Positions 2,324-58,252 of a DNA stretch of 64,000 nt are shown piece after piece (the stretch's first letter is position 1; every line of letters begins with the position of its first letter). A program made the position numbers and the translations under genes. The notes beneath the pieces are model-generated. The model saw nothing but the letters and a program-made list of their open reading frames with translations. It made no database searches and was not told where the DNA came from. The stretch is from a virus, in IMG/VR virus record IMGVR_UViG_3300032431_000008, positions 74 to 64,073 of that record; one strand, 5' to 3'.

Positions 2324-3676
2324 TCACCCGCAGTAATTGTCGAAGCGGGTTATCGTGTTGGAAAAAGCGAGGTTCACGTCGCCTACCTCCCCATTGCGGT
2401 TCTTGTTAATCATTAGCCCCATCAGGTTAGATGCGGTCTGGAACTCGTCGCCTTCTGCTTTGGGCCGGTAGAGCATCATCACCACGTCGGCATCCTGTTC
2501 AATTGCGCCGGACTCGCGCAGGTCGGACAGGCGGGGCTTGCGGTCGCCTTTCTCGGAATCGCGGTTAAGCTGGGCAAGGACCATAACGGGGATGTTCAGT
2601 TCCTTGGCCAATGCCTTGAGCCCCTTGGAAGCTTCGGCAACCTGTTGCTCACGGGGCGAGCGGGGATTGGCGGGGGCGATGAGCTGCATGTAGTCAACCA
2701 CGATAAGGGAGAGCGGTTTCTTGGCGTGGAGCCTGCGGGCCTTGGCGCGGATCTGCATCACGGTGGGACTGGAAGCCTCGTCAATGTAGAGCCGGGACGC
2801 CATAAACTCTTTCTCGGCTGCTTCCAGGCTGTTCAGGTCGGAGGCGGAAAGCATGCCAGCGCGAATCATTTTCTGGTTCACGCGCGCTCGGGATGAGGCC
2901 AAGCGTTTTCCAAGTTCTACGGCGGACATTTCCATGGAGAAGACGAGGCAGTTTCCTTGGGCTTTACGGCCATGGAGCGGTAAGGCTACGGCTTCGGCTA
3001 TGTTCATGGCGAGGGAGGTCTTTCCGCAGGAAGGACGGCCTGCCAGAACTATCATTTCAGACCCCTTCATACCCCAAAGGATTTGGTCAATGTCTTTAAG
3101 GCCGGTGGAAAGGCCGGTCATGGCTCCCTTGTCCTTGGCCATTTGCTTAAAGGTGGCAACGGCTGCGGACACGCAGGCACCTGCATGTTCAGCCCCGTCT
3201 TGAACGCGGGTCTGTGTGACGGCAAATATGTCGGACTCGATTTTATCCACGAACTCGGCAATGTTTCCGGTGTAGCTGTAACAGCCTTCTACGCCTGCGG
3301 TGCATACACGGATCATCTCGCGCAGTAGGGCAAGTTCCCGGACTTTCTCGATGAAGTAGGACACGCCTGCCGTGGTGGGGACGCGCCCGCTTATGCGGGT
3401 AAGGTAGGCGTAGCCGCCAATTTCATCTAGCTGCTTGGAAGTTTTGAGTTCTTCGGCTAGAACGGAAACGTCAATGAACTTGGCTGTGTTATAGATTTCA
3501 AGGAGTTTTTCGTAGCAGACGCGGTTGGCCGGGATTAGAAAGTCAGTGGGGGCAACCTTGCTTTCGATGCACTTGGAGATTACGTCCGCGCCGTCCAGTA
3601 AGCAGGCGGAAAGCAACTGCTCTTCGGCCTCAACGGAATGGGGGGGGACGCGGCCTAGGTTGGATTGTTGGGTCAT
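2324..3676 (-). CDS. dnaB: Replicative DNA helicase
   Basis: PPHSVEAEE N-terminus, Walker A GRPSCGKT, VDYMQL, LAQLNR, LSDLRESGAIEQDAD, KNRNG. Confidence 0.98.
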   Translation of the reverse strand: MTQQSNLGRVPPHSVEAEEQLLSACLLDGADVISKCIESKVAPTDFLIPANRVCYEKLLEIYNTAKFIDVSVLAEELKTSKQLDEIGGYAYLTRISGRVPTTAGVSYFIEKVRELALLREMIRVCTAGVEGCYSYTGNIAEFVDKIESDIFAVTQTRVQDGAEHAGACVSAAVATFKQMAKDKGAMTGLSTGLKDIDQILWGMKGSEMIVLAGRPSCGKTSLAMNIAEAVALPLHGRKAQGNCLVFSMEMSAVELGKRLASSRARVNQKMIRAGMLSASDLNSLEAAEKEFMASRLYIDEASSPTVMQIRAKARRLHAKKPLSLIVVDYMQLIAPANPRSPREQQVAEASKGLKALAKELNIPVMVLAQLNRDSEKGDRKPRLSDLRESGAIEQDADVVMMLYRPKAEGDEFQTASNLMGLMINKNRNGEVGDVNLAFSNTITRFDNYCG

Positions 3677-42704: not shown

Positions 42705-43577
42705 TCATGATATTTTCATGTCGATACACTTGTCCACGAAAGCAGAGCAGGCTTTCTTGAAGTTAACGATGGGTTCTTGTTCTCCGGTGATGGCACTCTT
42801 TGTGGTCCAACCGTTCTTTTTGCTGACGTCAAACCAAGACGTGGCGTGGATGCGCTCTTCGTCGTCGGGATAGGTGGCTTCGGCCCACTCTAGGAAATCG
42901 GTCTCACTGACAGGGCGAATGACGGGCGCGGCGGTGGCGTCGGCTTTGAGGAACGCGGCTAGGGCGATCTTCCAGTTACGAATCGGACGGTCTTTGATGC
43001 GCCAACCGTTGCGCTCGTTGATGGCGAAAAACCGGGCGGCGGCGGCGGGCGCGGCAAAAAGGCGGGCAGATTCTTTTATGACGTCGGAGATCGGAGGCTT
43101 TGATTGCTCTGATTCAAGAGAGAGAGGGGGGCCGACTCGAAGAGTTGGCGTCAGTTCTTTCGGTGCGGACCGGGAAGTTCTCGTCAGTTCCTTCAGTTCT
43201 TCTTTCTTTGTTTCAATCTTTCTTTGTATATCAGTGTCGTGAGTTCCGACCGTTCGGAAACCGCACTCTCTCCTCTCAAGAGGATCAGAATAGACGTTCC
43301 AGCGTTTCCCTTGAAAAAATGAGCCTTTGTCGGAAGGAAGCGTCACAAGTTTCATGTGTCCTGCCTCCGCGAGTTCTTTGAAGATGCGACGGATGACGAC
43401 ATTCCCGATGCCAATCGTCTTCTTTAGTGGCTCAACGCGAATCACCCAATCGTCAGGGAGGCTGAGGAGGTAGGCGAGCATCCCACGTGCTTCAAGGGTA
43501 AGCCCGTTGTTCTGCGCAATGCTGTTGGGGAGAATCGAGAAATCCTTAAGTGGTTTCGATTTGTGGATGGTTTTCAT
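42705..43577 (-). CDS. HTH replication-initiator-like protein
   Basis: DFSILPNSIAQNNGLTLEARGMLAYLLSLPDDW. Confidence 0.75.
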   Translation of the reverse strand: MKTIHKSKPLKDFSILPNSIAQNNGLTLEARGMLAYLLSLPDDWVIRVEPLKKTIGIGNVVIRRIFKELAEAGHMKLVTLPSDKGSFFQGKRWNVYSDPLERRECGFRTVGTHDTDIQRKIETKKEELKELTRTSRSAPKELTPTLRVGPPLSLESEQSKPPISDVIKESARLFAAPAAAARFFAINERNGWRIKDRPIRNWKIALAAFLKADATAAPVIRPVSETDFLEWAEATYPDDEERIHATSWFDVSKKNGWTTKSAITGEQEPIVNFKKACSAFVDKCIDMKIS

Positions 43578-43913: not shown

Positions 43914-43957
43914 AAAACAAAAAGCCCACCGTAGGGCGTCGAAGGCTACGGTGGGCT
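43914..43957 (-). terminator. Intrinsic terminator / attenuator upstream of 43864
   Basis: 12-bp stem AGCCCACCGTAG/CTACGGTGGGCT followed by a U-tract on the minus strand. Confidence 0.75.
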
Positions 43958-44062
43958 CAGAGTGAACGGCGCGGCTGTAAGTCTCCTTACAGTTTCGACG
44001 CCGTTCGGAAGAACCTGATAGAACTGTTCTTTTTGGAACAGGTCAACCAAGTAAGTTAAGAA

Positions 44063-44449: not shown

Positions 44450-44494
44450 AGTGGTGGAAATTCTTCTGTGGTGATTACAGGTCAATCAAGTAAG

Positions 44495-44902
44495 TTACTT
44501 TTCGGTGGGCATGTTTATGGCGCTATATGCTATTTCAGCCGCTAGCCGGACTTCGCAGGCTTTCTCGTATTTGCGTTGTGCTTCCTCGTATTCTGTCCCG
44601 CTCATTGCCACCACCGAGCATCCTTCAATGACGGCATAGCACAGTTTGCATTCGAGATTGGCGGCATCAACGGCGTCCCGTAGTGCGAGAGTGTCCGGGG
44701 CGGGCACGTTGCTACCGAGGCGTTCCATCTTGGCGATGTATGCCTTAAGCGCGGGGATTCCGCTGGGCTCAATGAGGACGGTATCGGTTGCGTGGACTGG
44801 CAGGTGGTGGTTGGCCGTGATAATCAGGCCGTAGGTGTGGGGGCAGACGGATGCGTAGGCACCGTCGCCAAGGTGGATGGGTTCGGGGAGTGGCGCGTTC
44901 AT
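44495..44902 (-). CDS. Hypothetical protein
   Basis: HLGDGAYAS pattern. Confidence 0.65.
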   Translation of the reverse strand: MNAPLPEPIHLGDGAYASVCPHTYGLIITANHHLPVHATDTVLIEPSGIPALKAYIAKMERLGSNVPAPDTLALRDAVDAANLECKLCYAVIEGCSVVAMSGTEYEEAQRKYEKACEVRLAAEIAYSAINMPTEK

Positions 44903-45312
44903 TTTGCACCTTTCTTTAGGGATTTGTTAAGGGCGTTGCGGGCGGCGTGGGCGTTGAGTGCGGCCTTGTGCTGGGTTTTAATCAGCTTATAGTAGGTAGC
45001 CATTGCTGCCTTAAGCGCTACATCAGCGGAGCCCTTGGAACTGATGGATTGGAAGTGTGCACATCCAGCGGCTTCATGGTATGCCTCGTCTCGAATAGTG
45101 AATGCGTCCTTTGAGTCTTCAAATGCGTCGTTGGCTGCGTTATAGGCGATGATTGCAGAAACTTGTGAGTAAAGCGCGGAGGTAAAATTAAGGAAAGCCG
45201 CGTTTCGCATGGCAGTTACGGTAAGGTAAAGAGCGATTGCGTCGCTAGATTTCTGAGCAAGGCTAGGCTTAGTAGGGGCTGGGCAGGTGGTGGTGGTAGG
45301 CTTTGTTTTCAT
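44899..45312 (-). CDS. Ala-rich helical protein
   Basis: Start refined; upstream motif at 45354. Confidence 0.6.
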   Translation of the reverse strand: MKTKPTTTTCPAPTKPSLAQKSSDAIALYLTVTAMRNAAFLNFTSALYSQVSAIIAYNAANDAFEDSKDAFTIRDEAYHEAAGCAHFQSISSKGSADVALKAAMATYYKLIKTQHKAALNAHAARNALNKSLKKGAK

Positions 45313-45519
45313 GTTGGTTATTGCGTGGTGAAAGTTCGTCTGTGGTAATTGCGGGTCAACCAAGTAAGTTCTTTTTGGGAGTCTCAAGGAACGATTCTTG
45401 GCGGGATGCTTCCTTGGCCACGGCCTCGCTGCGCTCGGCAATCTCGGCCATGGTGGGTAGGCTTTGCTGTTCGGTGGAAGCGAGGTTGAAGTCGGCTGCA
45501 AATAGGTCGGGTTGGTTGT

Positions 45520-45801
45520 TCATGTGGTTAAGCGCTGGCGGTTGCCTGTGCGGTGGAGCAGTCCGGTGATTGCGGCGCAGGAAAATCCAAGCTGGTCGGC
45601 GATGTGTTGGGGGGAGGTGCCTTGATGGAACAGGATTATGGCGTCGGCTTGTTCGGCTTTTGTCATGCGGCGTAGGTCGGTGGGTTTGTCGAGCACTACG
45701 GTATTGAGCGGGGCGGTGAGCATGTGGCGGTATTTGGCAACTAGGTGCTCAAGTGCGCGGACGGTGGAGCTGGCTGGGTGGTCTAGTGTTTCGTGGTTCA
45801 T
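45520..45801 (-). CDS. HTH-containing protein
   Basis: GTSPQHIADQLGFSCAAITGLLHR. Confidence 0.65.
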   Translation of the reverse strand: MNHETLDHPASSTVRALEHLVAKYRHMLTAPLNTVVLDKPTDLRRMTKAEQADAIILFHQGTSPQHIADQLGFSCAAITGLLHRTGNRQRLTT

Positions 45802-45828
45802 TGGTGGGAGGAGGTGGTGGAGTTGGCG

Positions 45829-46023
45829 TTATTTTTGGGAGGTGGTGTAGCGGAGAATTCCGTGGCGGCGGGAGACGAGGGAGACGAGGGACTGAGAGAC
45901 GGCAAGGGCTGCGGCAATCTCAACCTGGGTTGCGGAGGTGCGGGCCATTGCTAGGATGCGTTTGATGGTATCGGCTGGCGTTGGCTGGTGGGCTGGGCGG
46001 GTGGGCGTTGGTTGTGTGTTCAT
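45829..46023 (-). CDS. Small HTH protein
   Basis: ATQVEIAAALAVSQSLVS. Confidence 0.65.
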   Translation of the reverse strand: MNTQPTPTRPAHQPTPADTIKRILAMARTSATQVEIAAALAVSQSLVSLVSRRHGILRYTTSQK

Positions 46024-46087
46024 GGTAGGGCACCGGGAAGCCCCGCCGCTTGTGAAAGCAGGCAGGGCTTAGGGCGGGAGGGTCGGC

Positions 46088-47011
46088 TTACTTTTTGAGC
46101 AGACGGAATGCCTCGGTTTTGTCGATGGTCCGCATGGTGCCGTCTGGCTCCATTACAAGCATGGTGTGGTCAGAGTTGGCCGGGCGGCGTAGGTCTTTTT
46201 GTCCCCACGCGATGACTTCGCCGGGGGTGCAATCAATGCGGAGGAGTCCGTCCTTGCCCCATTTGCCGGTGGAGTCGCCGAAAGTGTAGTCCGGTTTTGC
46301 ACCGGAAGGAAAGGACACCTTGGCAATCCATGGCGCGGAGTAGCGGCGCTCGTTGTAGCTGCCGGTTTCGCGCTCGTAGTAACCGGAGGCGAGACGGGCG
46401 GCGGCGCGTTCGGCCTTGGCGATAACCTTAAGGCGGTCGCTCTCGACCTTGGCGGCGGCGGCGCGGGTTGTGTGCTCGGTGGTGAGGCGGGCGATTTCGG
46501 CGAGGTGCGGGGCGTTGTGAGCCTCAATCAAGGGCGTGATGCGAGCGATGGTTTCGGCCTTGGCGGTGTCGTGCGCGGCGCGGTCAACTCCATCGGGTAG
46601 GTAGTAGTCTGCCAGGTGCCGCACTTCCTGCTTATCCCACGAGTAGGACGGCCCTGCGCCGGTGTGCGTGTTGTGCGTGCAGCTAATGATCGGATCGGCC
46701 TGCCAAGCGGCAAACCGACTTACGTGCTCGGCGAGGGCAGCGGCTTCGCGGTCTGCTTTGGCGGTGATGACTTGCGCCAAGGCGGCGGCAAGGGCGGCGG
46801 GCGTTGCCTCGCTGACTTCGATGGCTGCGCCGTTCATGTTGTTTACGGTGGCAGGTGTGGTTCGCAAATCTAGGATAGAGACTAAGGTCGCCCAATGAAC
46901 GGGCGAGAAGTCGGATGGGCTGACATTAATCTCGACACGAGGGCCAAGGACTAAGCCTTTGAGGAGGGCGGCTTTTTGATCGGTGCTTACGCTGATACTT
47001 AGGGAGTTCAT
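46088..47011 (-). CDS. Hypothetical early protein
   Basis: Long ORF; SYNERRYSAPWIAKV C-terminal domain. Confidence 0.7.
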   Translation of the reverse strand: MNSLSISVSTDQKAALLKGLVLGPRVEINVSPSDFSPVHWATLVSILDLRTTPATVNNMNGAAIEVSEATPAALAAALAQVITAKADREAAALAEHVSRFAAWQADPIISCTHNTHTGAGPSYSWDKQEVRHLADYYLPDGVDRAAHDTAKAETIARITPLIEAHNAPHLAEIARLTTEHTTRAAAAKVESDRLKVIAKAERAAARLASGYYERETGSYNERRYSAPWIAKVSFPSGAKPDYTFGDSTGKWGKDGLLRIDCTPGEVIAWGQKDLRRPANSDHTMLVMEPDGTMRTIDKTEAFRLLKK

Positions 47012-47111
47012 TTTAGTTTTGTTATGCCATAGCGTGATTGCTAGGCACCGGGAAGCCCCGCCGCGCCGTTTTACGGGCAAGGGCGGGGCTGGGGGCTGTG
47101 TTGGTATGGGG

Positions 47112-47381
47112 CTATGCCATGGAGGCGGGGATTGGTTCGTTGGCTGTGGTTAGTTGAGTTTCGGCATATTTTGCACGTCCTCTGCGGTCTTGCTCGGAGC
47201 GGAAAGCCATAAGTTTTGCGCGTAGGTCTTTACGAAGTGCCGCACGATCAGCGGCGGGAGTCGGTGATTTGCTGTATTTGTCGCCTCTTGCGCCGATGGA
47301 CTCAATGTTACGTAGCCTGTCATAAATGGATGTTTCGCTGCGGTATAGTTCAAGGTCGGTTAAATTTAAAAGTGTGTTCAT
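47112..47381 (-). CDS. Hypothetical early protein
   Basis: ORF track; repeated leader. Confidence 0.55.
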   Translation of the reverse strand: MNTLLNLTDLELYRSETSIYDRLRNIESIGARGDKYSKSPTPAADRAALRKDLRAKLMAFRSEQDRRGRAKYAETQLTTANEPIPASMA

Positions 47382-47731
47382 GGGCGTTCTTGTTGTGTGG
47401 GTTATTGGTCAAGTATCTGGAAAGCGTCGGCAAGGGCGCGGGCAATCTCGTCCTCGTCGGCGTTGCGGGGAAGCGGGGGGAGGTCGGCAAGGCGCAAATA
47501 TTGGTTGGCCTCGGTGGTGGTGGTGGTTGGCATGGGATTAGCGGCGATATGGGGTGGCGTTCCACTGTGCGCCGGTCATGCGGATGACTTTGCCGGGGTC
47601 GCTGCGAGCAAGGGCGTGGGCGTCGCGTTTGGCGTTCGCACCACAAAAGGCGTAGTCAGAGCGGCGAGCGTTAAAGCGGACTATGTAATAGATTCGGGCG
47701 TCGTTGTTCATGGCGTTCTTGTTGTGTAGGA

Positions 47732-48073
47732 TTAGGCTGCGGGAAAGCGGGATTTAAAAGCGGCAAGTAAAAGGTCTGCGGCGGTGATGGGGTCGCTGTT
47801 CTTGGCGGCAAGGGCTGCGAGGGCGTAGGCGTGCCAGCGTTCGGCGTCGGCTGGTGTGGGGGGTGGGGCGGGGGCTTTAGTGGACTCAATATGTGCTTCC
47901 ATGGCGGCGTTTAGTGCTGTTAGGGCATCGCGGCGAAGTGCAAAGGTGGCTGTCACGGCGTCGTATTGAGGGGAGCTGAGCGGCGTTCCATCGGCTGCGT
48001 TGAGGGCGTTGTCATAGGCATTGGCTGCGAGTTCGTAGGCGATGACGGCTTGCTGGTAGGCGGTGGTGGTCAT
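47732..48073 (-). CDS. Ala-rich helical early protein
   Basis: ORF track. Confidence 0.6.
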   Translation of the reverse strand: MTTTAYQQAVIAYELAANAYDNALNAADGTPLSSPQYDAVTATFALRRDALTALNAAMEAHIESTKAPAPPPTPADAERWHAYALAALAAKNSDPITAADLLLAAFKSRFPAA

Positions 48074-48253
48074 GGCGTGATGGTGGCAAGGGTGAGGAAG
48101 GCGAGGGCGAGGGCTGCGAGGGCGTAGGGCAGGCGGCGGGCGAGCCGGTGGGACTGGCGGACCTGGGCGCGGTTCGCGCGGCGTTGCTGGGCGGTGGTGG
48201 TGTGGGCGTGGTGCATGGGTGGGTGGGAGAGATTTGACTAAAGGGCTTTAGCG

Positions 48254-48739
48254 TTATGCGATGCGGAATGAACCTTGCGATGCGTCGGTTAAAACACGGC
48301 ATCCATATTTTGCTTTTATCGTGTCTAAGTCTTGGCCTTTCGAGAATCTTGCGGCGTCTTGTTCTCTGCGGAAAAACCAGGCACGCTTCTTAGCGGCGAA
48401 TTTAAAGGCTGCGGCTTTCAGGGCGTCTTTAACTGTGAAGGTGTCGCCGGTAACCCATAGCCATTTCCCAACGATTTCGATAATGATCCCTTGTAAAGCA
48501 ATGATCTCTGAAACCTTGGCTGCAATTTCCTCGTCCATCTCAACGGCGGTTTCGGCGTCGTTGTCGGTCATGGTTTTGCGGTATTCACCGCGCAGGGCGG
48601 CGGAGTAGGCGGCGTTTATGCGCTGCATTTCCTCAAGGCTTCCGCCAAGGTCGGGGTGGTTGGCCTTGGCGAGTTCACGAAAGCGGGTTTTGATTGCAGC
48701 CTCGTCAAAGCAGGCGGCGAAGTAGTTTTGTGTGTTCAT
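48254..48739 (-). CDS. J-domain (DnaJ-like) protein
   Basis: IKTRFRELAKANHPDLGGSLEEMQRINAAY with the HPD motif. Confidence 0.88.
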   Translation of the reverse strand: MNTQNYFAACFDEAAIKTRFRELAKANHPDLGGSLEEMQRINAAYSAALRGEYRKTMTDNDAETAVEMDEEIAAKVSEIIALQGIIIEIVGKWLWVTGDTFTVKDALKAAAFKFAAKKRAWFFRREQDAARFSKGQDLDTIKAKYGCRVLTDASQGSFRIA

Positions 48740-48820
48740 TTGGTCGGGTTGGTGGTGGTGGGTGGGCGCCTTAAAACCCCGCCACTCCTGGGAGCTGGCG
48801 GGGCTGGGTGCGGGTTGGGC

Positions 48821-49072
48821 CTAGTCGGTGCAAACGGCAAATCCTCGGGAGTAATACCCGGCGATGTGTTCGCCTGCGGGCACGTCTGCGCGGGTTACAA
48901 TGTAAAGCGCGCACCCTCTCGGGTCGGTCTGGTGGTGGGCGATAAGGTGGGGATGGGCGGCCATTACTGCGGCGATGCGGGCAAGTGCGCCTTTTTCTCT
49001 GTCGGGCGTACGGGCTAGGCGTTTTCCGGTGTGGGTGTTGTAGGTGTGCGGGGCGTCGGTGGTGGTGGTGAT
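48821..49072 (-). CDS. Phage-like early protein lacking an ATG (ATC start?)
   Basis: Hand translation ITTTTDAPHTY...DREKGALARI...QTDPRGCALYI...YYSRGFAVCTD. Confidence 0.55.
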   Translation of the reverse strand: MTTTTDAPHTYNTHTGKRLARTPDREKGALARIAAVMAAHPHLIAHHQTDPRGCALYIVTRADVPAGEHIAGYYSRGFAVCTD

Positions 49073-49093
49073 GTGCTGAGAGAGTGGGGCGGG

Positions 49094-49282
49094 TTAAAGG
49101 GTCACGCGGTCGGCTAGGGCTTCCGTGATGCGTCCAGACCGGGCGAGGCTGTCAACGTAGTTGCAAAAGGTCTCGCGCACGTGGGCGGGGTAGTCGTTTT
49201 GCCTGCGGGTGCGTCGGTAAAGCGGGGCGAATTGGGGGAAGTTATTCCAAAAGGCGGCGCGTAGTTGGGCGGTGGTGGTCAT
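49094..49282 (-). CDS. Small early protein
   Basis: Paralogous to the C-terminal half of 49585..50010. Confidence 0.65.
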   Translation of the reverse strand: MTTTAQLRAAFWNNFPQFAPLYRRTRRQNDYPAHVRETFCNYVDSLARSGRITEALADRVTL

Positions 49283-49302
49283 GGGAAAAGGTGGGTTTCG
49301 GG

Positions 49303-49563
49303 TTAAAGGGTGGCGGCTGATTCGCGCGCTTGAACGCGCTCGGCTAGAAATTTAAATGAAGGGGCGTCGAATCGTTGTGAGTCGAAAATCAACCAAATCG
49401 CTTCGGCTGTTTTGCCCGCTTTACTAAGTGAAAGGACAAGCTCGGCTGTTCTGTCGATCTCGGCTAGTCGTCCTCCAATGGGAAAGCGGGCGGCTTGGTC
49501 TAGGGTGGTGTAGTAGATACTTAATCGCTCGTCGGTGGTGGTGGCTGGTGTTGGTGTATTCAT
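49303..49563 (-). CDS. Small early protein
   Basis: Shared junction repeats. Confidence 0.6.
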   Translation of the reverse strand: MNTPTPATTTDERLSIYYTTLDQAARFPIGGRLAEIDRTAELVLSLSKAGKTAEAIWLIFDSQRFDAPSFKFLAERVQARESAATL

Positions 49564-49584
49564 GGGAAAAGGTGGGTGGGTGGG

Positions 49585-50010
49585 TTAAAGGGTGGTGCGG
49601 GCTGCGAGGGCTGGGGTGATGCGTTGCGCTGTTATTAGGGTTACGAGGTATGCACTGAATGAACAAGTGACGGTCGCGCAGTGGTGGCGCTTGCCCTTGG
49701 ATATAATGCCAGCGGCGCGGGCCTGCTCGGCTAGGTGTGGGTGTGCTTGCCAAAAACTGGCGCGGATTTGCTGCTGTGTGGTCATGGTGGGGGGGTGTGG
49801 GTTAGTGGCTGCAAGTCGGTCCTCGGCTTTCCATAGTGCACGCTGCGCACGTCCTCGGGATTCTAGGGCGGGTGTCATGGCGTGGTCATAGTTAAAACCG
49901 GAAGTGGGGAGGGCTGCGGCGTGGCTGTCTGCGTCGGCGAAGGCTTTTTTCGCGCAGGCTAAAGCGCGGCGGGCGGCGGTGGGTGTGGTCGTGGTGGTCG
50001 TGGTGGTCAT
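49585..50010 (-). CDS. Early protein (possible internal start at 49785)
   Basis: MTTQQQIRASFW resembles MTTTAQLRAAFW. Confidence 0.6.
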   Translation of the reverse strand: MTTTTTTTTPTAARRALACAKKAFADADSHAAALPTSGFNYDHAMTPALESRGRAQRALWKAEDRLAATNPHPPTMTTQQQIRASFWQAHPHLAEQARAAGIISKGKRHHCATVTCSFSAYLVTLITAQRITPALAARTTL

Positions 50011-50027
50011 GGTGGGGCGTGGGTGGG

Positions 50028-50327
50028 TTAAAGGGAGGCGATGGGCGCGGCGATGCCTGCCCGGTCAAGCGCGGCTTGTAGCTGCTCGCCCAGGCGTTCG
50101 GCCTTGGCGCGGGCGGCGAAGTATTGGGCGCGGGCGGTGCCGTAGTCCTGGGCGAGCTGGGCCGCTACTTGGTCGGCAGTAGCGGGGGGGATGGGCGGGG
50201 GCAAGCTGGCTGCGGCGTCGGTGGCCTCAAGGGCGAGGGCGGCGGTCATGGAGGCGTAAGCGGCGCGGGCGCGGTTGCGTTCGGCTTCGGTGGTGGTGCG
50301 GGTGGTGGTGGTGGTGCGGGTGGTCAT
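50028..50327 (-). CDS. Ala-rich early protein
   Basis: ORF track; shared junction. Confidence 0.6.
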   Translation of the reverse strand: MTTRTTTTTRTTTEAERNRARAAYASMTAALALEATDAAASLPPPIPPATADQVAAQLAQDYGTARAQYFAARAKAERLGEQLQAALDRAGIAAPIASL

Positions 50328-50354
50328 GGTGGGAGGTGGGTCGGGTGTGGTGGA

Positions 50355-50576
50355 TTAATGCTTGGAGGCGGAAAGTTCGGCTTTATAGGCGGCTCGGTAA
50401 GTGGCCCGGTATTTTTCGGCGCGGTAAATGGATTTTAGATATGAGAGCCCCGGCCCCCATTCGGGGTTTATGGTGGATGTGGTTGCGGCGGCGGCGGCGT
50501 GGGCGGTGGTTCGTAGTTTGGCGCGGGCTAGCTTGCGCGTTAACCGGGCTTTTTCGGGCGTGTTTTGGGTGGTCAT
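50355..50576 (-). CDS. Basic early protein
   Basis: Start refined. Confidence 0.55.
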   Translation of the reverse strand: MTTQNTPEKARLTRKLARAKLRTTAHAAAAATTSTINPEWGPGLSYLKSIYRAEKYRATYRAAYKAELSASKH

Positions 50577-50586
50577 GGGCGGGAGG

Positions 50587-50820
50587 TCAAAGGGTTGTGG
50601 GCGTTGCGAGGGCGGCGGCGATCTCGTCGGGAGTCCATTGAGATTTGACCGTATTCCAGCAAGTGAGGGCAAAGTTTTCGTTAAGGTTGGCAAGGGCCGC
50701 AGCGTGGCGGGCTTTCTCTTGGGCAATCTTCTGGAGAGTGATCTTCGCCTCGCTCATCAGGTTGTATGATACGTGGGGAAGGTGCCTGACTGCGCGGGCG
50801 TTTTCTTCGGTGGTGGTCAT
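50587..50820 (-). CDS. Early protein
   Basis: Start refined. Confidence 0.55.
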   Translation of the reverse strand: MTTTEENARAVRHLPHVSYNLMSEAKITLQKIAQEKARHAAALANLNENFALTCWNTVKSQWTPDEIAAALATPTTL

Positions 50821-50846
50821 GGGTGGGAGTGTTCTACGTGGAACAA

Positions 50847-51017
50847 TTAAAGGGCGGCGAAGGCGCGGGCAAACGTGGCGCGCGCGGCGTGGCATTCGGC
50901 ATTATACGCGGCACTGGCTGCGGCGTAGGCTACGGGATCAACGGCAACGGCAAGGGCTCTATCCAGATTGGTTTCGGCTGTGGCAAGGCAGGCGAGCAGG
51001 GCGGGATAGGTTTTCAT
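50847..51017 (-). CDS. First early protein (56 aa, Ala-rich)
   Basis: Hand-translated MKTYPALLAC...ARAFAAL. Confidence 0.55.
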   Translation of the reverse strand: MKTYPALLACLATAETNLDRALAVAVDPVAYAAASAAYNAECHAARATFARAFAAL

Positions 51018-51053
51018 GGTCGGTTTAGGTGGTGGTTATCTGTCGAGGCTTTC

Positions 51054-51125
51054 AACGTGTAATAACAGAGAGTATCAGTCAATACCTGAATTAAAAAAGA
51101 TTTTAGATATTGTAGAAAACTTTAT
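51054..51125 (-). promoter_or_regulatory. Putative early sigma70-type promoter
   Basis: Minus strand TTGACT-N17-CACGTT with a long AT-rich UP-like tract. Confidence 0.55.
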
Positions 51126-51794
51126 GCCGCAAACTGTTAAACTAGGATTTAATTTGGTAGTTATTATTTGGATACAAATTGAGGGCAAGGGCGGGCAAGG
51201 GGTGGGAATATGGGGAAAACCTGGGGAAAGGGCGGGAAAGCGTGGGGCGTGCTGGTGGCCCTAGGTGGTGGGCAAGGGCTGGCGGGGCGTGCTGCGTGTC
51301 GTCCAGGGCGTGCGGGAACGGTCAAACAGTGGGCGAAAAGCGCGGGGAAGGGGCGGGGACGCGGTTAAACAGGGCGAGCAAGGGCGGGAAGGGGCGGGAA
51401 TGTGGGGCGATGATCGGGCCGATTCGCGGAACACTAAGAACGCAATGGTCAGCTAGTGTCCTAAGCAGGGAGTAAGGGAACAACATAAGGGGGGAAGGTA
51501 AGCAAGGGGACCGGCTGAGAGGGCCGGGGGTCGGTCAATTGGGAGCAATTGGAAGGGCGTGGGCGAGGCTGGGCGAGGACGAGCAAGGGGACCGGCAGGC
51601 AAGGACGGGCAAGGAAGGCGGGGAGGAAACGAGGAATTTCAGGGGGACTTTTAGCATTTTTACATGCCTTGCCTAACAGTCTTAGTCGTGCCTAAGAAGA
51701 TTAGCCTTGCCTAATATATGTAAAAAGCGGGTGAGATTGACCTGTTTCGGCCCTTGTCCTGCCCTTGCTAAGTGTGTGGGGGCGAGGCGAAAGC

Positions 51795-51822
51795 GTGACG
51801 CACAATCGTTATTATGTCTAAT
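51795..51822. other. dif-like XerC/XerD recombination site
   Basis: GTGACGCACAA-TCGTTA-TTATGTCTAAT (11-6-11); 7/11 and 9/11 to the E. coli dif arms. Confidence 0.7.
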
Positions 51823-52249
51823 CGCCCTGTAATTCCACGGGGGGCAGGGAAGTGGCGCGCCAGGCCCGGACCCACCACCCCTGCCACCACGACCGGCGTT
51901 TGCAGGCCGTCTTATTAAACAGCCCCTTCACCCAGTAATAGCTCCCACAAACCGCCCGCCAATTGCCCGCCCTTGCCAGCCTTTACGCTCCTTCCTGCCA
52001 GCCTTTACCCGCCAATTGCCCGTCCGTGCGCCTTTATTCTTGGCCATAGCCGTCCTATTGGAGCAACCGGGGGGTAGGCTAAACAGGGGGGGGGTAGGTA
52101 AAAAATGGGGTAGTATTGGTAAAAATTAGGGTAAATATTCGACTTACGTAATTTAGCAAGTGTCTGGCGATACTGGCTATGCTGGGTAAAAGTGAGGTGG
52201 TGCCACGGGCCGGGAGGAGAGTGTGAATTGCGTAAGTGGTTTGGGCATG

Positions 52250-52281
52250 AAAAAGCCCTTGGCCGGGAGGGGCCGAGGGCT
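52250..52281 (-). terminator. Intrinsic terminator ending the 52.3-60.4 kb operon
   Basis: 11-bp stem AGCCCTTGGCC/GGCCGAGGGCT plus U5 on the minus strand. Confidence 0.75.
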
Positions 52282-52308
52282 GGGGTAAGTGGGGGGGGGG
52301 TATGGCGG

Positions 52309-52566
52309 TTACTTGTCAGGCTGAACGGCCAGAGCGGCGCGGGCGATCTTGCCCATTTTATTAGCGTCTTCGTAAGGGTCGCAGGCGTTTACGTTAATTT
52401 CTCGAATCTGCATGAGAGCCTTTCGCATTTTAGCGTTTTCTCGTTCCAGCTTGCGGCGTTCCTCTTCAGTGGATAAGAGCAGGGCTGTTATCTCATCGGG
52501 AGATGCCCGAGCTATTATCTGATCGCGGGAAGCCTGGGTTATTTCCATTAGTCTAGGTATGTTCAC
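52309..52566 (-). CDS. Hypothetical protein
   Basis: Overlap chain. Confidence 0.6.
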   Translation of the reverse strand: MNIPRLMEITQASRDQIIARASPDEITALLLSTEEERRKLERENAKMRKALMQIREINVNACDPYEDANKMGKIARAALAVQPDK

Positions 52567-53015
52567 TTCCCGCCTCCTTTGGCCAGCGCCGCGATAACTG
52601 CTTTAAACAGCTTCACGTCGCGGCGGTATCTTGCGGCGATGGATTTTTCCCTGTCCGCGATGAGGAGCCGCTGTGCTTTGGTGCGCTTGGACCCGGCCTC
52701 GCGCCACAAAGCGTCTGTGCCTTCGCGCCAGCATTTGTTCGCTTGCTCGCGTGAGCGCAAAGTCTGTTGAGCCTCCGCGAGTTTTTTCTTTAGAAAGTCT
52801 AGGGCGTCAGGGGAGACCGGGACTTTGGCAGTGGCGGCACTTGCCACAACATGCCTGCGATAGTTTGCGACGAGCTGGGCGTCGTTCTGTGCCCACTTTG
52901 GCCATGCTTCGTATGGGGCGGGAAGCCCCCTGCGCACACGCGGGTTGAGCTGTCGCACAAGTTCGATGTCTGCCGGTGTGATTTCTTCGGGTAGGTTCAT
53001 TTCGTATGGTTTCAT
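52563..53015 (-). CDS. Hypothetical protein
   Basis: Overlap chain. Confidence 0.6.
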   Translation of the reverse strand: MKPYEMNLPEEITPADIELVRQLNPRVRRGLPAPYEAWPKWAQNDAQLVANYRRHVVASAATAKVPVSPDALDFLKKKLAEAQQTLRSREQANKCWREGTDALWREAGSKRTKAQRLLIADREKSIAARYRRDVKLFKAVIAALAKGGGK

Positions 53016-53033
53016 GGGAAGGTGTGTGCGTGT

Positions 53034-53201
53034 TTAACCAGTCTTACCCCGTGCTTGGCTATCCTCGTAGCATTTCTTGGCGACGGCTTCAGCGGATTTG
53101 CGACCGGCGTAGAAGCCCATGGAGAAGCTGGTGGAGAAAAAGCCGATTAGGTATGAGAAGGGGAGTATCAGGAATATGGAGATGATTTTAAGTGGGTTCA
53201 T
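53034..53201 (-). CDS. Small membrane protein
   Basis: Start refined; hydrophobic. Confidence 0.5.
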   Translation of the reverse strand: MNPLKIISIFLILPFSYLIGFFSTSFSMGFYAGRKSAEAVAKKCYEDSQARGKTG

Positions 53202-53419
53202 GGTAGAGTTGGGTAGCCTGCGAGGATTTGCTGGATTCTTAATTCGTTGGCGAGGTGAATTGACGCGTCCCATTGGCGACCATTGAGGCCGTCGTGTTGG
53301 CGTTTCATGAGGAGGAGGAACAAGAGTTTTGTGAAGTCTTGGTTATTTTCGAGGATGGTATCGGCAAGTGTGGCGACTTGGACGAGGGTTTCTTGTTTTT
53401 CTTGTTCGTATGTTTTCAT
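53198..53419 (-). CDS. Hypothetical protein
   Basis: Start refined; 4-nt overlaps. Confidence 0.55.
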   Translation of the reverse strand: MKTYEQEKQETLVQVATLADTILENNQDFTKLLFLLLMKRQHDGLNGRQWDASIHLANELRIQQILAGYPTLP

Positions 53420-53721
53420 GGGGAGGGAGTGGCAGGCACAATAGCCGCGATGAAGTCGATAAGCTGCTTGGCGAGTTTTTCTCCTGAGTCGGGGCTTTGG
53501 AAGTCCAGGTAGATGTGTTCGGAGAATTTTGCCGGGGTGTGTTCGTCCCATCCGTGGGTATGTGCGGCAACGCTGAGCATGTGGCAGTGAGGGGAGAAGC
53601 TTACGAATATGTCGGCGATGTGTGAAGGGGTGGAGGTGGCGAGGGCGAGGATTTCTTGGATGGAGCGGATTTGGTCTGAGTGGTATCCGCGAGTGGGGGG
53701 AGTGGGAGGTGTGTTGTTCAT
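53416..53721 (-). CDS. Hypothetical protein
   Basis: 4-nt overlaps. Confidence 0.6.
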   Translation of the reverse strand: MNNTPPTPPTRGYHSDQIRSIQEILALATSTPSHIADIFVSFSPHCHMLSVAAHTHGWDEHTPAKFSEHIYLDFQSPDSGEKLAKQLIDFIAAIVPATPSP

Positions 53722-54233
53722 GGGAGAGTGGGCGTGGTTAAACAGGATTTGAGCAGGTCAGAAATCTTAGGGCTGGCGGGTGGCATAGGGGGAATGGGGA
53801 CGACCATGCCTTCGCCTTCAAAGTTGATTGCGTCGATTTCCCAGTGTCCGGTTTGCCACTCAGTTGAGCCTTCTTCCGACCAAATGCCGATAAACTCACA
53901 GCGGTATTGTGAACCGCTGCTAGATGCGCGCGCACGTGATTGTTCAACTATTTTGCAGATAGCAGGCGCGGCCCTTCTTAGGTCTTCATAATCCGTTGCT
54001 GACATGTGCTCCTCAATCCAATGGTCGGAATGCGGTGCGATTTCTTGCAGCGAATAGATAACGAGAACGTCGGATGTGAGCAGGCAGGTTGCCGGATCGG
54101 TTTCCCATTCTTCGTCTTCCTGATAGCTGCATTTATTGAGGGATGGGATGTAAACTAAAATGGAGTCCGGCGTTTCGCTTGGCGGCGGAGAGCCTGCGAA
54201 GTAGAGGGCAGTGTGAATGATAGTGGAGTTCAT
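53718..54233 (-). CDS. Acidic hypothetical protein
   Basis: Start refined. Confidence 0.6.
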   Translation of the reverse strand: MNSTIIHTALYFAGSPPPSETPDSILVYIPSLNKCSYQEDEEWETDPATCLLTSDVLVIYSLQEIAPHSDHWIEEHMSATDYEDLRRAAPAICKIVEQSRARASSSGSQYRCEFIGIWSEEGSTEWQTGHWEIDAINFEGEGMVVPIPPMPPASPKISDLLKSCLTTPTLP

Positions 54234-54472
54234 GGATAGTGGTTTCCAACGGTTTCCAGCAAGTCCGGGCAAGGCTGGTCCGGCGCGTGGTAGTGGGTCA
54301 TGTAGGAGATGTGGGAAGGCTCGTCGGGCTGGAAGGCGTGGATGAATCGCAGGCAAGTTTCGCGGTGTGGGCAGTCGAGGGACCAAAGTGTGCCGTCCAT
54401 GCCGTTGGGCATGCGGGTAAGTTTCGGGAGTAGTCCGTCGCAGCGGGCAACGTCGTAAGGGAGGGCGGGCAT
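54230..54472 (-). CDS. Small Cys-rich protein
   Basis: LPYDVARC...CPHRETCLRF...C. Confidence 0.65.
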   Translation of the reverse strand: MPALPYDVARCDGLLPKLTRMPNGMDGTLWSLDCPHRETCLRFIHAFQPDEPSHISYMTHYHAPDQPCPDLLETVGNHYP

Positions 54473-54484
54473 GGGGAGGGATAA

Positions 54485-54754
54485 TTAGGACTTAGGTAAA
54501 TGAAACTGAAAAACATGGGCTCCTCTTTGGTGGCTATAATGGTATTCCCATGAGTTTGCGCGAAGGTGCAGGCGGGCATGATGGAGCGCATTGACAAGAC
54601 CGGAGCGTTCGGGTCTGCATCCCACCATTCGTGCCAGCATGGCGGCGCATGAAGACTCGGCATCTATTGGTAGGCGGGCTTCGCCCATGTCACGGATGAT
54701 CTGCTTGTCCGTGATTGTGTATAGGGTGGACGGGGATTCTTTGGGGCTTTTCAT
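54485..54754 (-). CDS. Hypothetical protein
   Basis: Start refined. Confidence 0.5.
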   Translation of the reverse strand: MKSPKESPSTLYTITDKQIIRDMGEARLPIDAESSCAAMLARMVGCRPERSGLVNALHHARLHLRANSWEYHYSHQRGAHVFQFHLPKS

Positions 54755-54773
54755 GAATTTCGCTATTATGGGC

Positions 54774-55031
54774 TTAATCGAGGGAAGCGCCAAAGGCCAG
54801 GACTGAGGCTGAGCGGGATTTGGCGTCCTCGGTGATGGCAAGTTGGAGTAGTTCGTAAGTGTGGGTGCGGGTTTTACGGGCTTGAAATTCTTTATTGTTG
54901 GCGATGTAGTGGGCGTTTGATGCTTCGGCAAGGGCGGCACCGGCGTTTAACATGTCCGCGCAAGCGGCGTCGTATGTGTTTTGTGCGGCGGCGACAACTT
55001 GGCCGGTGGTGAGAGGAGTTGGGGGATTCAT
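54774..55031 (-). CDS. Ala-rich helical protein
   Basis: ORF track. Confidence 0.55.
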   Translation of the reverse strand: MNPPTPLTTGQVVAAAQNTYDAACADMLNAGAALAEASNAHYIANNKEFQARKTRTHTYELLQLAITEDAKSRSASVLAFGASLD

Positions 55032-55633
55032 TGGGTGGGATTCATGGGGTGGGCGTGGAGTTTTTCTATGTTGAGTTTTTCAAGGGCGGCTCGTGCGGTA
55101 ACTTCGCAGAAGGTAAGGACTGTAAGGGACTGATTGTAGTCGTATGAGGCTTGGTTAAACGCGGCGCGGTCAATGAATCGGTTGGCGTAAGCGTCGGAGA
55201 CCTTGATTTTACGTTCTGCGCATTTCCTTTTAGCTTCAGTGAGGTCGGCTAGTGCAACATTGTGGGCGGCAACATTGATTGCTTTGGCCTCGGCTTCCTT
55301 TACGGCTACACCGGATTCATTGTAGGCTTGCATGGCGGCATCTAAAGCTTCGTCGGTTTTGCCGGGGTTGCATAAAGTTTCTGCAAAGACCTCGCCAAGT
55401 TCTTCGCGTTTGCGGTTAAGCTCGTCCAGCGATACCGGGCCTTCGCCGTCCATGAAGACCGTGGACGCGGGGCCGGAAACACGGGTAGTGGCTACGGCTT
55501 TAAGGATCTCAAATGTCTCGCCCGTGTGCTGGTTGGCAAGGCGTTCAGTCTCGGCTTGAGCAAGGGCGAGCGTTGCGTGGCGAACGGTGGGGGGATGGCT
55601 ATTTTTGCGGAGGACGTAGTAGTAAGGTTTCAT
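55028..55633 (-). CDS. Hypothetical protein
   Basis: PTVRHATLALAQAETERLA..H.GETFEIL N-terminal domain plus helical tail. Confidence 0.65.
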   Translation of the reverse strand: MKPYYYVLRKNSHPPTVRHATLALAQAETERLANQHTGETFEILKAVATTRVSGPASTVFMDGEGPVSLDELNRKREELGEVFAETLCNPGKTDEALDAAMQAYNESGVAVKEAEAKAINVAAHNVALADLTEAKRKCAERKIKVSDAYANRFIDRAAFNQASYDYNQSLTVLTFCEVTARAALEKLNIEKLHAHPMNPTQ

Positions 55634-56238
55634 AGGCGAATAGATTTGGGTGAACCGTCATTTTCGAGGGTTTTCTTAAAGCCTAGATTGCCCGCAATGT
55701 GCCAGCAAACTATGCCCTCGGGTAACTTAAACCCTGGCGCGGCCTTGCTGCCGCCCGTTCTCAATGCCCATAATGCGGCATCGCAAGCGTCGGTGGTGAA
55801 CGGTCCTTGGTAAAGGATGGGCACGACGCCAACGCAGGGAGGTAGCACGTCTTGCCACTTATTAACCCGTGGATCAGCCGTGGGCATTGCGCGGGGCGTT
55901 TCGCCGTGCAGGCACCAGCGGTCGGCATTGAACAGGCTTAGTCGCTTTTCGCCTTTTGGCAGGTTATAGCCGCGCTGGATGCCAGACCCCCACCATTCGC
56001 CGAAGTGACGGCCTGTGCCAAGGGTAAGCAATTCTTCGCGGTGTTGGGAGCACCACGTAGCAAAGCCGTGGTTGTCGTCGCCGGGGGTGATCCAGCGGTT
56101 GCGCGAGCCGGTCATTATTTGGCCGTCCTCGGTGATGAGGATTTGGGCGTTCGTGCCGTCGATTTTCTCACTGATAATGCAGTCGCGGGAGAGGCGAGCT
56201 AGTTTAGGGAATCCGGTAAATTCGGTGTTGGTGTTCAT
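55630..56238 (-). CDS. ATP-dependent RNA ligase (Rnl2-like adenylation domain)
   Basis: SEKIDGTN (motif I), GSRNR, FGEWWG, PEGIV. Confidence 0.85.
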   Translation of the reverse strand: MNTNTEFTGFPKLARLSRDCIISEKIDGTNAQILITEDGQIMTGSRNRWITPGDDNHGFATWCSQHREELLTLGTGRHFGEWWGSGIQRGYNLPKGEKRLSLFNADRWCLHGETPRAMPTADPRVNKWQDVLPPCVGVVPILYQGPFTTDACDAALWALRTGGSKAAPGFKLPEGIVCWHIAGNLGFKKTLENDGSPKSIRL

Positions 56239-56246
56239 GGCTAGGT

Positions 56247-56732
56247 TTATTTGGTATCGTTAAAGCGTGCATCCATTGCTGCGTGAGCAACGGCAAAGTA
56301 GCTGTTACACAATAGTTTAATGTTTTCTCGTTTTACCGTTCTCTCGTTAGAAGACTTCCAAAGATATTTTACAAACACTTCTACTGGAATGTTCTCAAAA
56401 ACTGTTTTGTAAAACTCAGCATCCTTGCGGAAGATAACTTGAACATTGTGAAGGTAAAGGACGTATAGTGCTTCTGTGTCGAGGGGGTATAACTCGGAGT
56501 CTTTTAGCTGTTCCTCAAAACCATTTAGCAAAAGAAGTTCCTTAAGTGCTGGGTTGGCCGTGGCGTAATAGTCATAGTCGGTTTCTTCATTGATCGTAAT
56601 TTTCGGAGTGGCTAAGCCCCACATATTAGCCGTAGCAGCTATTGCTGCCATTTTACGGGAGCCGCCGAGATAGAGAGTGAAGCAAGCAGCAGCATTTTCT
56701 ATTACCTTTAGCGCTGGGAGTTGGGTGTTCAT
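56247..56732 (-). CDS. Putative Pol-beta-superfamily nucleotidyltransferase
   Basis: LYLGGSR ... ETDYDYY (GS plus DxD). Confidence 0.55.
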   Translation of the reverse strand: MNTQLPALKVIENAAACFTLYLGGSRKMAAIAATANMWGLATPKITINEETDYDYYATANPALKELLLLNGFEEQLKDSELYPLDTEALYVLYLHNVQVIFRKDAEFYKTVFENIPVEVFVKYLWKSSNERTVKRENIKLLCNSYFAVAHAAMDARFNDTK

Positions 56733-56751
56733 TATTTTGGTAAGTTATCGG

Positions 56752-57168
56752 TTAAACGCCGGTAGAGCCAAAGCCATTGGCGGCGCGGGTGGTTTGGTCT
56801 AGGGAGGAGGCTGGAGTGAGTTGTGGGTAGCAGACATTGGCAAAGACGAGCTGGGCAATGCGCGACCCCTTTTTTACCATGAAGTGCATATCCGTGGTGT
56901 TGTGCAGGATCGCGCTTACCTCGCCGCGATAGTCGCTGTCGATGGTGCCGAGAATGGCGACGATGCCGGACTTTGCGGCTAGGCCGGAGCGCGGGCGAAC
57001 CTGGGCTTCAAGGCCGTAAGGGATTTCAAGGGCGATGCCGGTGGGGATAACGGCAATGGCGCAGGCTTCGATGATGTGGTCACGACAGGCGTAGAGGTCG
57101 TAGCCGGAAGCGCCGGGAGTTCCCTGTGAGGGAATCATGGCGTCGGGGTGGAGAAATTTGATATTCAT
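56752..57168 (-). CDS. dut: Trimeric dUTPase
   Basis: SGYDL, PRSGLA, GTIDSDYRGE, RIAQLV, R..NGFGSTG. Confidence 0.97.
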   Translation of the reverse strand: MNIKFLHPDAMIPSQGTPGASGYDLYACRDHIIEACAIAVIPTGIALEIPYGLEAQVRPRSGLAAKSGIVAILGTIDSDYRGEVSAILHNTTDMHFMVKKGSRIAQLVFANVCYPQLTPASSLDQTTRAANGFGSTGV

Positions 57169-57363
57169 AGTTGGGTGAATTGAAGGGTGGTTCTGGTCCT
57201 TCGCAATCACGTCCTGTTTACATATCCCCTATGATTGCCATGGGGGAAGTGTAGCGATTCTAGTTAGGGGATAATGATTGATGGGTTTTCTGTGGTTCAT
57301 GGACTAGATGTGAACGGGTGGGTCTATTTGAGCCAAGGAAGTAAGTGAAATAATTGGAGTAGT

Positions 57364-57726
57364 TCACTTCACGCTTATGGCGTCACCGCCAGAGGTGTGA
57401 ACGATTTTTGAGCCCAAAGGAGCCCCGCCTGTGCGGGCTTTTACGTCTGGATTGAGGGCGCGGTAGTCTTTCCATGCGCGTTCAATGATGTGAGTGGTAA
57501 CGGAAAGGTGTTCGGCAATTTCTATGGTCCTCACCCCGGACAGCTTAAGTTTGACAATGGCGGCGTCGAGGGCGGAAGCGGGGGTGGTTGATTTACCGGC
57601 CTCTCTGTGTCGTATGTCGGGGATGCGGGAAGTGGTGCGTAATGTGTCGCGGTGATTGGTTTTAATGGCCGGGGAAAGGCCGGAAATCTTGGGCTTTGAG
57701 AATAGGTTATCGTCGGTGTTTTTCAT
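57364..57726 (-). CDS. HTH-containing protein
   Basis: GVRTIEIAEHLSVTTHIIER. Confidence 0.55.
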   Translation of the reverse strand: MKNTDDNLFSKPKISGLSPAIKTNHRDTLRTTSRIPDIRHREAGKSTTPASALDAAIVKLKLSGVRTIEIAEHLSVTTHIIERAWKDYRALNPDVKARTGGAPLGSKIVHTSGGDAISVK

Positions 57727-57895
57727 GGTAAAAATTCGTCAATGGCGTAGGAGAAAGCCAGTTCGTAAGTGGTGAATGTTCCTATGATGCCAAAGGCTTC
57801 GCCGGTTAAGAGAAAGCAGGACGGCCCATGCTGGTGAATGGACAAGCCTTCGGGGGATGACCAAAGGCAGATCGGGTATTTGAGGGCCATGGTTA

Positions 57896-58252
57896 TCATA
57901 GTCTTGGTATGGAGAGTTTAGGCGAGGATTTTAGGTCTTGCTGTTCGGCGGTGTGTTTACGGGAGCTGCTTTTCATTGCGGCAAAGTAGTTGGAATGGGC
58001 GAGGGACAGGTGTTCAAGGGACTGCCATGCGCGGAATATGAGCAGGCGTTGGGCGGGGGTGGTTGTTTTGTGGTTGTAGCTTTTATCGAGAACATCACGG
58101 AGGAGGCGCAAGCGGAGCGGTTTTTCGGGGGTGACTGGCGGGAGTTCCGGCAGGGGGGTAATGTGGGTGATATTTGCGAGTTGCTGAACGGCTTCGTGCT
58201 TTCTTTGGAATAACAGTTGAAGCAAGGGGTCAGTCGGCGGGCTGGTTGTCAT
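57896..58252 (-). CDS. Hypothetical protein
   Basis: ORF track. Confidence 0.5.
   Translation of the reverse strand: MTTSPPTDPLLQLLFQRKHEAVQQLANITHITPLPELPPVTPEKPLRLRLLRDVLDKSYNHKTTTPAQRLLIFRAWQSLEHLSLAHSNYFAAMKSSSRKHTAEQQDLKSSPKLSIPRL

Follow-up and report, generated by a model that had tools for sequence, protein, structure and literature searches.

A dif-like site with the arms of Opitutales dif and a centre of its own in the genome of a tailed phage lacking an integrase gene

The locus and the phage that carries it

The window, a stretch of 64,000 nt, comes from a 64,108-bp IMG/VR record (IMGVR_UViG_3300032431_000008) of a freshwater phage. Tail genes were recognised by a Pfam tail-collar domain (E 4e-19), a weak match to a Gp10 baseplate domain (E 7e-4) and a match to a PHROG tail-fibre family. 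An earlier note, made from the sequence alone, had described a phage with its own initiator and DnaB but no integrase, and the gene searches agreed with this. A DnaB-type replicative helicase is encoded at 2324..3676 on the minus strand (DnaB_C, E 5e-86), and an initiator-like HTH protein at 42705..43577 on the same strand (phrog_428, phrog_4707 and phrog_270, E 1e-4 to 3e-8). Tyrosine (PF00589) and serine (PF00239) recombinases were absent in a six-frame search, the record being an estimated 93% complete. No ParB was found in a six-frame search of the window, and Pfam scans of 98 ORFs gave no repressor, ParA, toxin-antitoxin or XafT-like family. Further genes encode methylases, a dUTPase and RNase H, while most early genes had no known family. 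At 61258-63900 on the plus strand, a conserved core protein of 880 aa is interrupted by a Hint/LAGLIDADG intein; this protein is possibly the large terminase. Positions 43000 to 58000 of the window form a hypervariable block of small minus-strand genes in which only a handful of ORFs had Pfam or PHROG matches, namely the dUTPase, an RNA-ligase-like protein and three small ORFs belonging to PHROGs of unknown function.

The dif-like element lies within this block at 51795-51822 on the plus strand and reads GTGACGCACAA-TCGTTA-TTATGTCTAAT. When the DNA was re-read, both its sequence and its position were as previously reported. It consists of a XerC-type arm (GTG followed by ACGCACAA; 51795..51805, +), a 6-bp central or crossover region, TCGTTA (51806..51811, +), and a XerD-type arm, TTATGTCTAAT (51812..51822, +). 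The layout is thus 11-6-11 with partly inverted arms, the inner arm sequences CACAA and TTATG being near-inverted about the 6-bp spacer. The location is non-coding, as had been claimed: a stretch of about 1.4 kb, roughly 50.9-52.3 kb, has no convincing ORFs and sits between two minus-strand gene blocks.

The element had originally been recognised by its likeness to E. coli dif, and this likeness did not hold up. The two arms agree with E. coli at 7/11 and 9/11 positions (16 of 22 bases), which is within chance, since a binomial estimate gives about 0.3-0.5 such matches per 64-kb window. A search of the 64-kb window with E. coli dif at up to three mismatches returned zero matches. Thus, the comparison with E. 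coli alone proved nothing. The proposed comparison with dif sites of Verrucomicrobia gave a different result, as the phage arms were identical to Opitutales dif at 19/19 specified bases. These are the inner eight bases of the XerC-type arm, whose outer three are variable in the hosts too, and all 11 bases of the XerD-type arm. On a weight matrix built from host sites, the phage site scored 33.9 bits and was the sole match in the window, compared to 12.2 bits for the best of 30 shuffles. An arithmetic estimate puts the chance of an exact 19-base match in 64 kb at about 5e-7. The weight matrix showed no second site in the window, and no cassette is bounded by two sites.

Several other features surround the site. 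At 51673..51714, 80-120 nt from the XerC-type arm, there is an alternating array of CTAA/TTAG half-sites (TTAG-N6-CTAA and CTAA-N5-TTAG, with a 19-bp period), which we read as a candidate operator or binding array for an accessory protein. On the side of the XerD-type arm, a C-rich block occupies 51870..51935. G-rich repeats of the GGGCAAGG/GGGCGGG family lie at 50840..51620 on the plus strand, with inverted copies at 51955-52029. These repeats had been called iterons, a label that is unproven as the same 7-mers are common on the plus strand genome-wide (36:7). A KOPS-like polarity of the G-rich 8-mers was considered; all of them are on the plus strand, but so is every other G-rich word, which makes their polarity uninformative. 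Neither an Rfam search of the non-coding region nor a promoter scan gave a match.

The nearest relative of the phage, G006, is 79% identical in a 685-aa core protein and collinear with the window, but circularly permuted. Almost none of the 43-58 kb region in which the site lies is shared by the two genomes. The site is among the few blocks of the non-coding region conserved between the two, the others being the TTAG/CTAA array and the C-rich block. When the conserved candidate operator block was sought in viral contigs, it was present in G006 only. The homologous region of G006 contains TCGCACAA-TAGGGA-TTAGGTCTACT, which has three arm changes (16/19 arm bases). Its left arm is a common host variant, and its right arm is one base off the host variant ending CTACT. 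Because the changed base in the right arm is an inner one, the G006 copy is probably weakened. No dif-like site was found in the more distant relatives G007, G413 and G415, two of which are complete genomes. Conservation among relatives, by which the site was to be judged, therefore extended to the closest relative in weakened form and no further, which indicates that the site is dispensable for the family. No integrase was found in G006 or G007. The GC skew is one-signed genome-wide regardless of gene strand in the window (0.165) and in G006 (0.124), and it is near zero in G007, G413 and G415. This suggests a derived, one-directional mode of replication in the lineage that also bears the dif-like site.

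The chromosomal dif of Opitutales and dispersed dif-like sites

Sites of the dif type were predicted in 2011 for three Verrucomicrobia (PMC3025954). We searched representative bacterial genomes with a free centre and found the exact ACGCACAA-N6-TTATGTCTAAT in at least 120 bacterial contigs. Nearly all were labelled Opitutae, Opitutales, Opitutaceae, Puniceicoccaceae, Coraliomargarita, Lacunisphaera or Verrucomicrobiota; the exceptions among the 80 matches listed were two Akkermansia-labelled MAGs, one gammaproteobacterial MAG and one unnamed bacterium. At one mismatch or less, the site was present in 280 of 401 genomes sampled from the order, in about 270 of them exactly once, and the reversed control pattern gave 2 matches in the same genomes. 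In the wider class, 86 of 401 sampled genomes had the site, which was single in 85 (control, 3 matches). Four large assemblies each had one copy of the site only, even when two mismatches were allowed.

In a complete 3.06-Mb chromosome (G002), the site is located at 1,083,284, where the GC skew switches from plus to minus. In the samples, positive skew extended to about 1.06 Mb and negative skew was seen from 1.22 Mb onwards, with values near zero in between, up to 1.16 Mb. In the motif-bearing genomes we found FtsK with a gamma domain and two Xer paralogues, one of them XerD, whose score passed the curated cut-off in three of four. The single copy per genome and the location at the GC-skew switch show that the arm-matching chromosomal site is the dif of Opitutales. 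Its centre is TATATA, TAAACA or TAAATA in 83 of the 120 chromosomal sites. The resulting consensus, nnn[A/T]CGCACAA-N6-TTATGTCTAAT, is usable for the order and aids both the mapping of termini and searches for mobile elements.

Two further observations were made on G002, a Coraliomargarita chromosome assembled as a long-read MAG. In 400 kb of sampled sequence (L141-L160), the 8-mer GAGTAGGG was found 20:0 on the leading strand, and it is a candidate FtsK-orienting (KOPS/SRS-like) motif of the clade. One GC-skew switch is near 1.08 Mb and the other lies between 1.70 and 1.99 Mb, so that the replichores would be very unequal, about 2.3 and 0.8 Mb.

The phage centre, TCGTTA, was found in 0 of the 120 chromosomal sites and shares with the common chromosomal centres only base 1 and either bases 5-6 or base 6. 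It is one base from TAGTTA, a rare chromosomal centre (2/120). TCGTTA recurs in an otherwise unrelated viral contig, L004, which shares an identical 25-mer with the phage, and in dispersed secondary sites of the genomes G482 and G464.

Dispersed sites of this kind were observed in three 4.5-Mb Opitutales genomes (G482, G464 and G443; L202-L208), each with one canonical dif and 5-12 dispersed dif-like sites of the form CGCACAA-[TC]C[GAT]TTA-TTATGTC[TC]AGT, for which the consensus centre is TCGTTA. One dispersed site equals the phage 24-mer save for a single outer base. Every dispersed site lies within a repeat of about 0.75 kb, in mosaic multi-copy regions beside MacB/OEP efflux genes and Cache-domain genes, and Rfam gave no match to these repeats. 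The chromosomal repeat is unrelated to the sequences that flank the phage site, and the DNA of the window from 44 to 64 kb had no meaningful similarity to G482, G464, G443, G449 or G442. On a 3.7-kb contig of G449 (C8; L201), three dif-like sites in the same orientation are spaced about 1.45 kb apart and each bound one gene (Fic; AAA_14-DUF4143), forming a cassette-like array on Xer-type sites. Closely spaced pairs of sites were also seen in G443 and G482. The flanks of the extra sites in eight genomes (G442, G449, G479, G505, G681, G744, G440 and G448) were unlike any viral locus compared.

Sites with host arms in other viral contigs

At least 129 other viral contigs contained perfect-arm sites; these contigs were selected on perfect arms, so that arm perfection among them is by construction. 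Most are tailed phages, T7-like ones included. The same exact arms as in the window occurred in 19 viral contigs with unrelated flanks, and the centre was a common chromosomal one in 0/19. With TCGCACAA-N6-TTATGTCTAAT, which is also a common chromosomal variant, 110 more viral contigs were found, falling into about 71 flank classes. The reversed control pattern gave 0 viral contigs. A common chromosomal centre was present in 3/129 viral sites and in 83/120 chromosomal ones (Fisher P 2e-32, indicative only because the lineages are not independent). Sampled site-bearing contigs encoded large terminase (E 3e-112), portal, tail fibres, T7-type RNA polymerase (E 5e-164) and a tape-measure protein; in G408, the large-terminase match was weak and sub-threshold (E 5e-4). 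No integrase or ParA was found in five other site-bearing viral records, two of which are complete. Judged by their sequences, phage-borne sites with dif arms and private centres are a general feature of the phages of this host group.

The sites lay near contig ends more often than expected. In 15 of 71 contigs, the site was within 150 nt of an end, compared to 3.2 expected, and in three of five near-complete records it was within 1.5 kb of an end. The distance to the large-terminase gene in other phages was 0.8-2.6 kb. Two lineages with the same flanks, L294 and L242, had different centres, one of them the chromosomal TATATA.

Among the 110 contigs (L209-L318), the commonest centre was GATCCA (19/110), which we take to be the centre of the psi site of pSC101. 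A palindrome, GTTGAT(A/T)ATCAAC, was often seen 5-15 nt from one or both arms, at phage-borne sites (L209-L318 and L002-L020) as well as at dispersed chromosomal ones, and may be a site for an accessory protein. It is absent from the window.

Possible uses of the site and known Xer systems

The core idea of the earlier note, that an integrase-less phage carries a site for the host Xer recombinases, was upheld by the identity of the arms to Opitutales dif. Of the two uses offered there, integration and dimer resolution, either may apply; no integrated copy was recovered from the genomes, contigs and one public run searched. From the fit of the arms, host XerC and XerD can probably cut and rejoin the phage DNA, and the element is likely a functional Xer substrate of some kind.

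How such a site would be used is less certain, and we tentatively favour a role within the phage DNA, in which the host XerCD may recombine two copies of the phage's own site into monomer circles, much as P1 does with lox. Host XerC would act on the left arm and host XerD on the right arm. Because the centre differs from that of the chromosome, the phage site should pair productively with its own copy and not with chromosomal dif. It would then be a plasmid-type site like cer or psi, acting within phage DNA. Recombination would take place between two copies on a dimer, on a concatemer or on a linear genome with terminal redundancy, and the monomer circles so formed would replicate in theta mode under the phage initiator and DnaB. 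The site would thus do the job of Cre/loxP of P1 with host enzymes. Both XerCD binding and recombination between phage copies are inferred here.

The comparison with characterised sites favours this use. The attP sites of integrative mobile elements exploiting Xer (IMEX) keep the dif centre at least beside the XerC arm, and their XerD arm is often degenerate, while plasmid-type Xer sites keep the arms and differ in the centre (PMC5357621; PMC12715192). Perfect arms with a foreign centre are therefore the plasmid pattern of cer and psi and not the known IMEX pattern. The proximity of sites to terminase genes and contig ends in the other phages recalls loxP near pac in P1, which again favours use within phage DNA. 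The initiator-like protein together with DnaB, the permuted map relative to G006 and the one-sided GC skew were also counted in its favour. On the other side, canonical XerCD recombination requires FtsK at the septum or accessory proteins, and we know of no cer/psi-type accessory region in Verrucomicrobia. Monomer circles are of little obvious use to a lytic phage packaging from concatemers, and the enrichment of sites at contig ends could equally stem from alternative junctions made by integration. In the window, the putative packaging genes are some 9 kb away from the site, and the relatives show the site to be dispensable for the family. Genes for partition or plasmid maintenance were not recovered, so a stable prophage of the plasmid type has no support.

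Integration was searched for in several ways. No dif prophage and no attL or attR, as the earlier note had envisaged, was found in the genomes, the contigs or one public run. Among 401 genomes sampled from the class, not one had a close match to the 685-aa core protein, and none of the best 120 of its 282 homologues was on a contig longer than 75 kb; thus, among those listed, the family was not seen embedded in chromosomal contigs. Most of the genomes compared are MAGs, which often lose prophages. One public run holding this DNA, probably the source sample, had a 17.4-kb contig that spans the site with no joint or loose end; this run was available as contigs only, which drop rare forms, so that a missing junction says little. 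The exact 25-mer gave no match in metagenome contigs. No contig searched had two perfect-arm sites at prophage spacing, and the weight matrix found no second site near 120 genomic loci (stretches of up to 8 kb) or in viral loci.

Two contigs of the genome G005, C18 and C267, were examined as a possible dif-integrated prophage. On C267, the site was canonical with a TATATA centre and both flanks held large ORFs of host-like G+C. A weak second match on C18 was inside a glycerol-metabolism gene cluster and is due to chance. C18 (L173, 1-14600) is a chromosomal contig with a short island of tail genes, including a tape measure at 6575-9223. A perfect-arm site with the centre CGTGGA is present at 3299, after which comes a low-GC stretch encoding a small serine resolvase; an integrase-like gene lies at 12822-14045 at the host border, 9.5 kb from this extra site. 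The presence of an integrase-like gene in the island shows that such a site does not in every case stand in for an integrase.

The main alternative to use within the phage DNA, possible but somewhat doubtful, is that the element is an IMEX-type attP. Host XerCD would then insert the circularised phage at dif in the terminus or at the dispersed secondary sites with TCGTTA centres, and the phage would persist as a prophage, its mismatched centre shielding it against FtsK-driven excision. Integrase, resolvase and partition genes are absent from the record, the five other site-bearing records, G006 and G007; both arms are perfect, so that XerC and XerD should both bind; the dispersed sites of G482, G464 and G443 share TCGTTA as consensus centre; and the lineages L294 and L242 differ in centre on the same flanks, one showing a switch to the chromosomal TATATA. 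Contig ends cluster at the sites, as coexisting alternative junctions would give, and marine T7-like phages with a lysogeny module near the genome end are known. Against this, neither an integrated copy nor a junction was found in the genomes, the contigs and one public run, and no genome contig had two perfect-arm sites at prophage spacing. TCGTTA is little like the common chromosomal centres, whereas in the attP sites described so far the dif centre is retained, at least on the side of the first exchange (PMC5357621). No repressor or lysogeny gene was recognised, though most ORFs are without known family; the wider family looks non-integrating; and the one prophage-like island with such a site, that of C18, has its own integrase-like gene. 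A passive origin, in which the site is a relic or passenger recently acquired from the host or another element, intact by its recency and useless to the phage, seems quite unlikely. It would fit the confinement of the site to the lineage of the window and G006, where the G006 copy is already degraded (16/19, including an inner base of the XerD arm), the absence from G007, G413 and G415, and the fast-changing region around the site. However, the centre and flanks differ from the chromosome, so that the site is not a piece of host chromosome, and it is among the best-kept non-coding blocks shared with G006. The 129 viral contigs, compared to 0 with the reversed pattern, together with the systematic avoidance of chromosomal centres, also argue for selection on phage-borne sites in general.

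We consider it very unlikely that the element is a docking or exchange site at which XerCD fuses the phage with DNA of the same centre, such as other phages or excised chromosomal modules, and thereby drives turnover of the hypervariable accessory region. This would explain why the site is inside the 43-58 kb region almost unshared with the closest relative and why an unrelated contig, L004, contains the identical 25-mer, and it would be in line with the three-site, cassette-like array on C8 of G449, the close site pairs in G443 and G482 and the mosaic, multi-copy regions around dispersed sites. Yet the window has a single site and no two-site cassette, and a cointegrate of two phages could not be packaged. 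Moreover, the data contain no sign that the chromosomal arrays are mobile, and the phage-site flanks are unrelated to the chromosomal repeat. A broader scheme, which we regard as unlikely, combines several of these elements into an Xer exchange network. The tailed phages of Verrucomicrobiota, T7-like ones among them, would have replaced a phage recombinase by host XerCD, with a private-centre site circularising or monomerising their DNA and shared-centre recombination linking them to chromosomal dif-like sites and arrays.

Exploitation of the host Xer system is known from small phages, filamentous or tailless, which insert at dif. In the literature searched, we found no description of a Xer site on a tailed phage or a phage-plasmid. 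Here, exact host arms combined with a centre of their own were seen in a 64-kb tailed phage and in no fewer than 129 other viral contigs from this host group. If these sites work, a whole guild of phages in a little-studied phylum would be borrowing an essential enzyme from its hosts, either for the management of its own DNA or for lysogeny without an integrase, and this would change how 'virulent-looking' genomes are read.

[quoted passage not shown] The carrier is likewise a predicted self-replicating element without a recombinase. The site is likewise non-coding, and the sequence conserved on the side of its XerC arm may serve as accessory DNA. The phage site differs in that no accessory region of the PepA, ArgR or ArcA type was identified, in having a 6-bp centre as compared to 8 bp in cer, and in its carrier, a 64-kb tailed phage of Verrucomicrobiota without plasmid-maintenance genes. 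The IMEX (CTXphi, VGJphi, TLCphi, the gonococcal genetic island and the dif-type double jelly-roll vibriophages) are also integrase-less elements with a dif-like site for host XerCD. The present site has two perfect arms, a foreign centre and no integrated copy that could be found. In addition, the phage IMEX in the literature searched are filamentous or tailless, whereas this phage has tail genes.

In P1, a loxP site near pac allows Cre to circularise terminally redundant DNA and to resolve dimers. Under the reading favoured here, the phage site would similarly be a recombination site of the phage genome for circularisation and dimer resolution. P1 encodes its own recombinase along with the site, while here the enzyme would be that of the host, so the phage system is not a member of that family. 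The pdif sites of Acinetobacter plasmids provide a further parallel, as many Xer-type sites outside the terminus are found on mobile DNA there and, in some Opitutales genomes, on the chromosome. Modules of the pdif type have an inverted pair of sites at their borders, in contrast to the single site of the phage and to the direct orientation of the arrays seen in Opitutales.
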